Source: Octopus vulgaris
Taxonomy: Eukaryota
Reading direction: 5' to 3'
Assembly: GCA_951406725.2 (NCBI GenBank)
Contig: OX597830.1
Span: 67,456,001-67,520,000 of the forward strand
Length of the DNA stretch: 64,000 nt
This document shows, one piece after another, positions 555 to 54,459 of this stretch (position 1 is its first letter; every line of letters starts with the position of its first letter). Both the position numbers and the translations under genes were made by a program. The notes under the pieces are model-generated. The model searched no databases and was not told the DNA's origin. It saw nothing but the letters and a program-made list of their open reading frames with translations.

Positions 555-2035
555 AAGGTGGATGGAACTTGAGGAGGAGGAAGACCTATAAATATGTGGG
601 AAAAAGTATGTAAAATGACCTTCAGATTTTGAGTTTCACAGAGGATATGACAAAGAACTGGGATAATTGATCATTTGGGCTTCAGGAGATCTGTCTATCT
701 ATGTAAAATCGATGTCCTAAAGGCATGTTGTTTATTTCTATACCCCTGCACACAATCCATGTCTCTGAATCTCTCCCCCAAAACATATCTTCCTATCCCT
801 ATTTACTGCATTTTTCTCCCCTCCATCTCCTACTCACCTTTCATAAACTTACCTACCCACTCACCCTATCCAATCCTCTGTACCAATTCCTATATATACA
901 CCTCCCTGTAATTTGATGGAATGCCCCAATACATCTTCTTCACCCTCTTCTCTCTCCCTCTGGTTCCACCTGGAGTAGCCATGTATCTCTTCTACTGCAA
1001 CATATCTGTTTCTATCCCCTTATTCATACTCTAACTTCTCATCAGCTGGCACAAAGTTACCTCCCTCACTACTACTCCCCCCACTCAGTTGCAGTTTCTT
1101 ATTTTGCAAGTTACTTGGTCACCTCTCTAGTGTTGGTGCCACATAAAAAGCACCCAGTAAACTCTGTAAAGTGGTTGGTGTTAAGAAGAACATCTGGCTG
1201 TAGAAACCATGCCAAAGCAAATGGTAGAGTCTGGTATGGTCTTCTGGCTTACCAGTTCTTCTCAAACCATCCAACCCGTACCACAATGGAAGAAGGACAT
1301 TAAATAATGTTGGTATAGATGACGACGACGATGATGATGATGATGATGATCATCATCATCATCATCTTCATCATCATGGTATTGATTTATGTTTTCTAAA
1401 ACCTGAACTTATACTAAACTTTATATTCTAGTCAAGTCATATTTTATACATTTTAGACCTAAATGAGGTTATACTTAATGTGAGATGTATTTTAGAATCA
1501 GTTATATTTTATTATTAAGATATAATTAAAAAGATATACATTTTACTTTAATCACTTATATATTTTTACCTCAATCAGGTATGTTTTGTACTTTAACCAG
1601 GTATGCATTACACCATGATCTGGTTATACCTTCTACTTTAACCAGGTATATTTAAAAATTTAATCATGTATATGTTTTATACACTAACTAGATATGTTTT
1701 ACCTTAATCAGGCATATTTCATAATTTAATTAGATATTTTTTTTTTCTTAATCAATTTATATTTTCTGCTGTAATTTTAGAGACAGAAGTCAAGATTCCA
1801 GCTGTTGCAGTAATGGTTGGAGGTGGACCTGGAACTCTGAAGTCAGTGTATGATTCAATATCACGCAACATCCCAGTTGTAATAGTAAAGGTCAGTAAAT
1901 AGACTATTATGTAAATAAGGTTACTGAGAGTTTATTCAGTTCATAATGTTTACATATCTGAAGAAGCTTGTGGTTAAGAAAACTAAAAGGAAGGACTATA
2001 TGAGTATTTTGTTGGTGCAGAATTTTCCATAAATA
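555..2035 (+). repeat. Segmental-duplication block (intron+exon) homologous to ~45560-46970
   Basis: Colinear matches such as aaaatgaccttcaga, atatacacctccctgtaatttga and gtcagtaaatagactattat in both copies. Confidence 0.9.
1787..1890 (+). CDS. TRPM: TRPM-like exon, module 1: [34 protein letters not shown]
   Basis: Acceptor acag at 1786 (alternative in-frame ttttag at 1780), donor aag|gtcagt; matches the TRPM IPxVCVVxxGGPGT motif; phase 1 to 0. Confidence 0.9.

Positions 2036-54459: not shown

Follow-up and report, generated by a model that had tools for sequence, protein, structure and literature searches.

Tandem SLOG/MHR1-3 modules in a multi-copy TRPM-related gene family of Octopus and their probable link to a channel half

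Described TRPM channels and their relatives

TRPM-beta channels (Nematostella, zebrafish and human TRPM2, TRPM4/5/8) have, according to the relevant passages of two surveys, a SLOG/MHR1-3 fold, MHR3/4, S1-S6 and a TRP box (PMC7306681; PMC13143021). The passages drawn on here from the latter, a 2026 survey of TRPM evolution, present one melastatin region (MHR1/2-MHR3-MHR4) per chain as a consistent feature and place a cysteine-rich segment N-terminally in every metazoan TRPM type apart from some TRPM5 (PMC13143021). In excerpts of work on TRPM2, the ADP-ribose contacts of the zebrafish channel are T150, T186, Y271, R278, T312 and R334 (PMC7201885); in three TRPM2s gating is abolished when both arginines are lost, and a single change in the zebrafish channel can have a mild effect (PMC7555694). 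The sister clade TRPS (soromelastatin) is outlined as carrying SLOG, Nudix and a divergent TRP domain (PMC7306681), and the octopus TRPS accessions seen in the supplement of PMC13143021 are proteins other than the genes analyzed here.

Cephalopod single-module TRPMs are placed as beta in the published tables drawn on here (PMC13143021; PMC13402157). For each of three octopuses, the 2026 census of cephalopod TRP channels gives the ordinary beta-TRPM alone within the accession ranges searched; incomplete models were excluded from it, and the words 'SLOG' and 'tandem' are absent from its main text (PMC13402157). Of the genes described below, the lists seen in the TRPM survey hold just the channel half XP_052830018 of O. 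bimaculoides, filed as TRPM-beta in Table S1 (PMC13143021). The octopus tandem genes resemble TRPM-beta channels in the SLOG/MHR1-3 fold and, in their channel half, in MHR3/4, S1-S6 and the TRP box, but differ from them in having up to five modules instead of one, in lacking the cysteine-rich segment and NUDT9H, and in degenerate ADP-ribose contacts, an Ala in place of the filter Gly, multiple copies and signs of diversifying selection.

When 1.84 billion representatives were searched with a module, 2392 matches were obtained; the best 150 of these included no protein from outside Octopus with four or five clean modules. Of 309 retrieved proteins, 6 from outside Octopus matched over more than the length of one module, two of them being likely artefacts. 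A divergent, predicted TRPM model, XP_072049890-2 (P0166/P0306), has two adjacent SLOGs ahead of the channel part; the jellyfish Sanderia model P0165 has two SLOG regions and doubled MHR1-4 in one predicted protein, and the ENA model P0220, outside the tree set, also has two SLOG regions. In the tree, the double SLOGs of P0165 and P0166 are of independent origin, if the models are real, and some of the double-SLOG models may be fused neighbor genes. We rejected a sturgeon model (P0162), flagged as contamination with scrambled near-identical repeats, and an oyster model (P0164) whose second SLOG follows the channel. Database models from Octopus already show the repeats, named 'uncharacterized' or 'TRPM SLOG domain-containing'. 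A full-text literature search, with subscription papers outside its scope, returned no description of a multi-SLOG TRPM, in agreement with the preliminary description of this DNA, to which no such architecture was known; passages of PMC7306681 and PMC12919962 likewise make no mention of a stacked-module TRPM. The multi-SLOG gene is real, expressed and conserved in Octopus, and apparently undescribed.

Exons, modules and splicing at the window locus

The window is the whole 64,000-nt stretch of O. vulgaris DNA analyzed (G000:C17:67,456,001-67,520,000); plain exon positions are window positions, and Mb positions refer to contig C17. Database proteins named O. vulgaris match the exons at 95-98%, and O. 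sinensis and O. bimaculoides are close relatives. For this window, the preliminary description had claimed a gene derived from TRPM in which SLOG/MHR1-3 modules stand in tandem and are spliced in frame, made of 13 in-frame, stop-free exons with a second module of 1086 nt (362 aa). The exons and splice joints confirm it: all 13 are present on the plus strand with AG acceptors, GT donors and consistent phases (Table 1), and the nine exons of module C add up to the claimed length without a stop. Two boundaries had to be corrected. The first exon starts at 1781 instead of 1787, in a phase that fits the upstream exon, and the frame continues past 54459 via a previously missed 26-nt exon and, 5.6 kb beyond the window end, a 28-nt exon, which keep it into module D. 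From 1781 to the assembly gap, 21 exons form an open frame of 782 aa without a stop. The former 'module 1' is a real SLOG module, but it is the second of four at the locus (module B), and the suspicion of further modules upstream proved right in the 264 kb examined around the window.

Table 1. Features of the window locus and of related stretches on contig C17. Contacts are the residues of O. vulgaris modules at the zebrafish TRPM2 positions T150, T186, Y271, R278, T312 and R334, in this order.
Feature	Position	Strand	Remarks
Module A	window -62.9 to -25.2 kb	+	nine exons, common phases; contacts I, L, F, R, T, P (2/6 kept)
Module B	window -20.7 to 15.8 kb	+	nine exons, common phases; contacts I, L, gap, R, T, R (3/6 kept)
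Module C	window 17.9 to 54.5 kb	+	nine exons, common phases; contacts I, L, S, K, T, K (1/6 kept; both arginines lost)
Module D exons 1-6	window 81.5 to 108.5 kb	+	before gap; contacts of module D I, L, P, R, T, G (2/6 kept)
Module E			contacts I, L, S, R, T, Q (2/6 kept)
100-N assembly gap	window position 109,374		0.9 kb past D6
Repeated open frames	1-610		minisatellite-like, intronic
Module B exon 6 (SLOG C-terminal strands)	1781-1890	+	AG/GT ends and phase
Intronic open frame	8393-8860	+
Tandem repeat, 66-nt unit x3.7	9541-9782		minisatellite-like, intronic
Module B exon 7	10100-10188	+	carries the R334 position, R kept
Module B exon 8 (MHR3 helices)	11493-11662	+	15 nt shorter, in frame, than two paralogous copies
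Module B exon 9, last of module	15699-15793	+	phase 0 end
Phase-0 intron B to C, 2072 nt	15794-17865	+	spliced out in 4/4 examined runs
Module C exon 1 (MHR1 start)	17866-17903	+	phase 0; splice seen in run contigs
Dispersed repeat, C1-C2 intron	18638-19071		very highly transcribed
Module C exon 2	21660-21744	+	cysteine-rich segment found in ordinary TRPMs is missing
Module C exon 3 (SLOG start)	28388-28568	+	T150 position I
Module C exon 4	37645-37808	+
Intronic open frame	39972-40481	+
Module C exon 5	42432-42591	+	Y271 position S; R278 position K
Module C exon 6	46725-46828	+	acceptor shifted relative to modules A, B and D; in frame
Intronic open frame	47096-47542	-
Module C exon 7	49645-49730	+	R334 position K
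Module C exon 8 (MHR3 helices)	51243-51415	+	8 amino-acid-changing and 1 silent difference to paralog
Module C exon 9	54365-54459	+	phase 0 end; weak AAG acceptor
26-nt linker exon toward module D	60529-60554	+	also in O. sinensis / O. bimaculoides models P0001 and P0011
Contig of 130 kb	G000:C17:67,565,474-67,695,402	-	linker-E-channel; between two 100-N gaps, cut at both ends
D7-9	67,721,880-67,732,530	+
D7-9	68,022,950-68,033,800	+
D7-9	79,422,500-79,412,700	-
D-E linker (P0014/P0016)	79,407,000-79,369,000 (approx.)	-	chain of 30-75-nt micro-exons, phases 0-2 and 2-0 alternating

Modules A-D follow the same nine-exon plan with the same phases, phase 0 at start and end. With four modules and B spliced to C, the locus departs from the rule of one melastatin region per chain. 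The SLOG domain PF18139, the N-terminal criterion for a TRPM, was confirmed in models P0001 and P0002, with four stretches in each. Exon matches to PF18139 number 81 in the genome, 75 of them on contig C17, and are not a chance result, 0/14 control genomes giving any. The cysteine-rich segment is present in P0022 and absent from modules A-E as well as from the two nearest single-module paralogs. In modules A, B and C the intron flanks match one another at 77-79% (control, 67%), the level also seen in the exons (77-79%); the unit was therefore duplicated as genomic DNA. These results show that the nine-exon, phase-0-to-phase-0 unit was duplicated together with its introns.

We predicted the fold of one module (O. 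bimaculoides module C) from a 91-row alignment, such that the prediction largely mirrors the family; the pLDDT was 89.9, with the last 30 residues uncertain. In Foldseek, the best match of this prediction was the TRPM2 domain 7aov (E 4e-30, TM 0.79), and TRPM7 MHR1-3 (8sib) was also found. On the predicted structure, a module is the TRPM MHR1/2 plus the first MHR3 helices. The three-module model P0003, folded with an 11-row alignment, reached a pLDDT of 39.7, which gives no reading of module packing.

The introns hold other elements as well. Three open frames of 149-170 codons resemble by eye what we take to be decayed mobile elements (reverse-transcriptase-like, helicase-like and mariner-transposase-like), minisatellite-like tandem repeats occur, and the dispersed repeat in the C1-C2 intron draws most of the aligned run contigs.

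Joining of the modules by in-frame splicing from 15793 to 17866, as had been proposed, was checked on sequencing contigs. Exon C3 was found whole or in part in 20 of the 24 runs listed, none of which is recorded as RNA. Four runs, one from each of four studies, were aligned to window positions 15600-28590, and their status as transcripts was judged from exact GT-AG joints. Contigs of all four runs contain the proposed joint as well as the joint 17903/21660; because the introns are exactly removed, these contigs represent transcripts. A 611-nt contig from a run labeled as a second organism (X12) consists of 296 nt of upstream sequence followed by B9, C1, C2 and C3, and a 544-nt contig (run X3) reaches C2. 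They differ from the window locus at 1 and 3 positions in B9, respectively, and the spliced contigs may derive from any of seven gene copies. These alignments, which covered B9-C3, showed no transcript that bridges D and E or runs the length of the gene. Among the database models P0001-P0013 from three Octopus species, 11/13 contain the B/C junction; P0007, the O. vulgaris model matching the window locus, ends at B9, and P0005 bypasses the junction.

The channel half and the gene family

A gap-free paralog at G000:C17:79.25-79.65 Mb (400 kb) is 94-98% collinear with the window locus, introns included, and carries on one strand, in this order, A1-5/B6-9, C, D, linker, E, MHR3/4, S1-S6, TRP box and coiled coil; only module E runs on into full MHR3/4. 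Its A/B hybrid module points to an unequal crossover in intron 5. At 68.00-68.06 Mb, a second gap-free stretch connects D to the linker; its exon ends are AG/GT and D7-9 is open. Overlapping database models together cover the path from D6 to the channel: P0004 runs from D6 through D9 into the linker, P0016/P0134 from D8 through linker, E and MHR3/4 to S1, and P0014 from D through linker and E into the channel. The O. bimaculoides model of A-D6, XP_052830016/17, is next in accession order to XP_052830018-21, which begins inside D8. Six models from three species (P0002, P0003, P0011, P0012, P0013 and P0163) end at D6 by intron read-through. The channel half keeps the TRP box and the S2/S3 acidic motifs, which we take to be the Ca2+ site, and has Ala where TRPMs presumably have their selectivity-filter Gly. 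Judged from these gene models and assembled copies, the full form of the gene is likely to have five modules, A-E, ahead of a TRPM-beta-type channel. Our preferred reading, to which we assign a probability of about 0.6, is that the window holds the middle of a spliced tandem-SLOG gene continuing into the channel, whose modules are predicted to be rapidly diversifying sensors of ligands or proteins and not ADP-ribose sites.

Several other stretches of the cluster bear the same parts. The 130-kb contig between two gaps (Table 1) is, once reversed, about 96% collinear with the 79-Mb paralog; it was probably reversed or misplaced in scaffolding and may be the reversed 3′ half of the window locus or of a neighboring copy. 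The D-E linker micro-exons are acidic, and those with phases 0-2 resemble exon 1 of the modules in their intron flanks, a hint that the duplicated unit also gave rise to the linker. The O. sinensis model P0015 (XP_036366250-54) combines the front half of module A, the back half of module E and the channel, and is possibly a one-module recombinant of the tandem family. At the N-terminus of P0003 (CAI9735606.1), linker-like sequence leads directly into an A-type module start, which would mean that chains at 67.7-68.1 Mb exceed five modules; in the stretch 67.73-67.83 Mb, after a D7-9 tail, there are weak matches of exon-1 type at 67.776 and 67.793 Mb. This tail, which lies behind the second gap, cannot be counted as the continuation of the window locus, its upstream 26 kb not being collinear with the D6-D7 intron of the paralog. 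A three-module channel at 44.5 Mb was rejected, C5 being separated from the channel piece by a 100-N gap; the copy at 68.5 Mb (A/B-C followed by channel), read from exon matches, may be interrupted in a similar way.

B9 and C1 each have seven close copies on C17, always paired and in one orientation, and there are three copies of exon E3 and five close channel ends. Single-nucleotide indels were found in A4 at the window locus, in A4 (two), C6 and the MHR4 exon of the 79-Mb paralog, and in D9 of a third copy; those inspected sit in or next to short single-base runs. A published O. vulgaris assembly of similar size is characterized, in the part of its report drawn on here, by Nanopore reads, QV39 and 1.22% heterozygosity (bioRxiv 10.1101/2023.05.16.540928). 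If the present assembly is of this kind, some copies could be uncollapsed haplotypes, the introns of the window locus and the 79-Mb copy differing by 1.1%, and the 1-nt indels could be errors. Even with uncollapsed haplotypes, seven copies require at least four loci.

The relationships of the modules were examined in a quick maximum-likelihood tree of 50 module sequences, with SH-aLRT support only, few outgroups and no named TRPS row. Modules A-E fall into a single clade (99) within the cephalopod single-module TRPMs (99), the deeper forks being weak. Each of the five module types holds together across species (97-100), and two hybrid models fall beside the groups. The module types are common to O. 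vulgaris, O. sinensis and O. bimaculoides, and by this branching the array is older than the split between O. bimaculoides and O. vulgaris/sinensis. The nearest relatives in the tree are the ordinary cephalopod beta-TRPM (XP_036366346, XP_052830098 and CAI9735236; cuttlefish CAE1165048) and two single-module octopus paralogs. The ordinary protein has one module, as do the cuttlefish and decapod-like relatives found, and in octopus it and the two paralogs lie on the same contig or chromosome as the tandem genes. Three single-module TRPM paralogs were located on C17 at 42.9-43.1 Mb and 44.25-44.33 Mb, two of which, without the cysteine-rich segment, are the closest outgroup. The best PDB matches of P0022 are TRPM2. 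Our best overall reading is that the tandem genes are an octopus-specific, multi-copy offshoot of TRPM-beta.

Selection, the ligand pocket and alternative readings

We compared copies by simple codon counts, in which every change in a changed codon was counted as non-synonymous (N), and the 79-Mb copy recurs in the comparisons, which are not independent of one another. Over the 24/33 alignable exons, the window locus and the 79-Mb copy differ by 60 N and 7 silent (S) changes (pN/pS 2.4-3.1, p 0.014-0.001), with a divergence of 2.4% in exons and 1.1% in introns. Against the 44.5-Mb copy (20 exons), the counts were 58:13 (pN/pS 1.2-1.6), which was not significant (p 0.08-0.31), and module E gave 26:9 (pN/pS 0.8-1.05); pN>pS was not seen in these two of the five module comparisons. 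The strongest signal of the cluster lies in the three versions of D7-9, with 50:1 and 61:3 (pN/pS 6-19, p at most 1e-4) and an exon divergence of 14-17% against 1.6-2.2% in introns, about 8-9 times higher. Channel exons gave 44:7 over 10/12 exons (one dropped for overrunning its end, one unaligned) and 36:5 over 7/12, with pN 0.040-0.044 against an intron rate of 0.014-0.018. Random errors would neither cluster in exons nor spare silent sites. When O. vulgaris/sinensis are compared with O. bimaculoides, modules A-E are 77-81% identical and single-module paralogs 85-94%. The codon counts point to diversifying selection among the copies, in modules and channel exons alike, and this selection suggests an arms race.

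The preliminary description had called the modules nucleotide-sensing, but ADP-ribose-type sensing found no support: each keeps 1-3 of the six TRPM2 contacts (Table 1), and the contact residues differ again in O. bimaculoides. The ordinary cephalopod TRPM-beta reads T, L, F, R, T, R at these positions, keeping four (T150, R278, T312 and R334) plus F for Y, and none of the modules keeps this whole set. No Pfam match to NUDT9H and no Nudix domain was found in P0014 or P0015. By these residues the pocket has been altered differently in each module, and a TRPM2-like ADP-ribose site is unlikely. One may still suppose that each module remains a nucleotide (ADP-ribose-like) site, perhaps of shifted specificity, in a multi-site or cooperative nucleotide-gated channel. 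The predicted SLOG fold is intact, R278 is kept in 4/5 and T312 in 5/5 O. vulgaris modules, and single substitutions can be mild, as in the zebrafish channel. But T150 is replaced by I in every module, the Y271 and R334 positions vary from one module to the next, and module C has lost both arginines, which together with the lack of NUDT9H makes this reading improbable in our judgment. Rather unlikely, though less so, is a main product that is a soluble, channel-less protein of three to four SLOGs ending at D6, a sponge, decoy or regulator of separately transcribed neighboring E-channel genes. It would account for the six models that stop at D6 and for the excess of B/C junctions over E3 exons and channel ends. 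On the other hand, in both gap-free stretches D7-9 and the linker follow D6 with intact splice sites, and selection is strongest on these exons, P0004 crosses from D6 to D7, P0016 has no natural start, and the cluster is repeatedly broken by gaps. Both ends, D6 and the channel, may be used.

Neutral decay of a segmental duplication, with several copies as transcribed pseudogenes, we regard as very improbable. Inter-module dN/dS is 0.82-1.16 (10 pairs), every interval including 1; split by conservation it is 0.92, 1.19 and 0.79, without clear contrast, the last value being that of columns conserved outside octopus, and 1-nt indels are present in assembled copies. These values would suit decay, but the five modules hold 0 stops where a neutral simulation, which ignores open-frame ascertainment, gives 5-6 in each, longer indels between copies are multiples of three, and pN exceeds the intron rate in 5/5 module comparisons; moreover, spliced expression is seen in four studies and module types are kept in three species. 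An assembly artefact, or adjacent partial paralogs without co-transcription, is practically negligible as an explanation. The gaps, the probably reversed contig and the split gene models of the cluster speak for it, but the modules are just 46-59% identical in protein and thus not a collapsed repeat, their order is the same in three species, and the exact GT-AG joint in 4/4 runs refutes it for B/C at the level of the family.

If the window is the middle of a gene that continues into the channel, one mRNA would run from module A through the channel and encode a chain of about 2,700-2,800 aa. Module E would occupy the usual place of MHR1-3 above the pore, and A-D would extend into the cytoplasm, hung from E on the chain and the acidic linker, so that a tetramer would carry up to 20 modules. 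Ca2+ would stay a co-activator, and the extra modules would bind varied intracellular ligands or foreign proteins, by which the channel would be opened or tuned together with Ca2+. The pattern of selection agrees best with an arms race in which the modules serve as immune bait or stress sensor, and the alternative is a use in chemosensory tuning; our own estimate for the use is about 40% for immune or stress sensing and 25% for chemosensory function, the rest being other.

Integrated-decoy plant NLRs and animal immune receptor clusters likewise combine a duplicated domain on a signaling effector with clustered copies, unequal crossover and dN/dS above 1. The octopus genes bear a resemblance only to these systems: their effector is an ion channel, and the appended units copy its own N-terminal domain. 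An octopus TRPM might have turned into an immune-type receptor family, in which several copies of a tetrameric cation channel with up to 20 SLOG modules are reshuffled by unequal crossover under an arms race, and extra modules bait pathogen proteins or pathogen-made nucleotide signals, their binding leading to Ca2+/Na+ influx as in the SLOG-gated effectors of bacterial defense. We put this forward tentatively and lean against it.

TRPMs are taken as conserved low-copy genes; the octopus lineage is expressed and multi-copy, its amino-acid divergence reaches about ten times that of introns, and it points to a sensory or immune arms race that has gone unrecognized in octopus. Its diverged modules offer a natural library of MHR1/2 pockets for the study of SLOG binding in TRPMs beyond TRPM2. 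Since annotations split the gene, published octopus TRPM counts and one phylogeny sequence likely include fragments.

A 332-aa single open frame on another contig (G000:C7:67,310,868-67,311,404, plus strand) matches the S3-TRP region at 28% and has no introns; it may represent an intron-poor or retroposed TRP-like gene.
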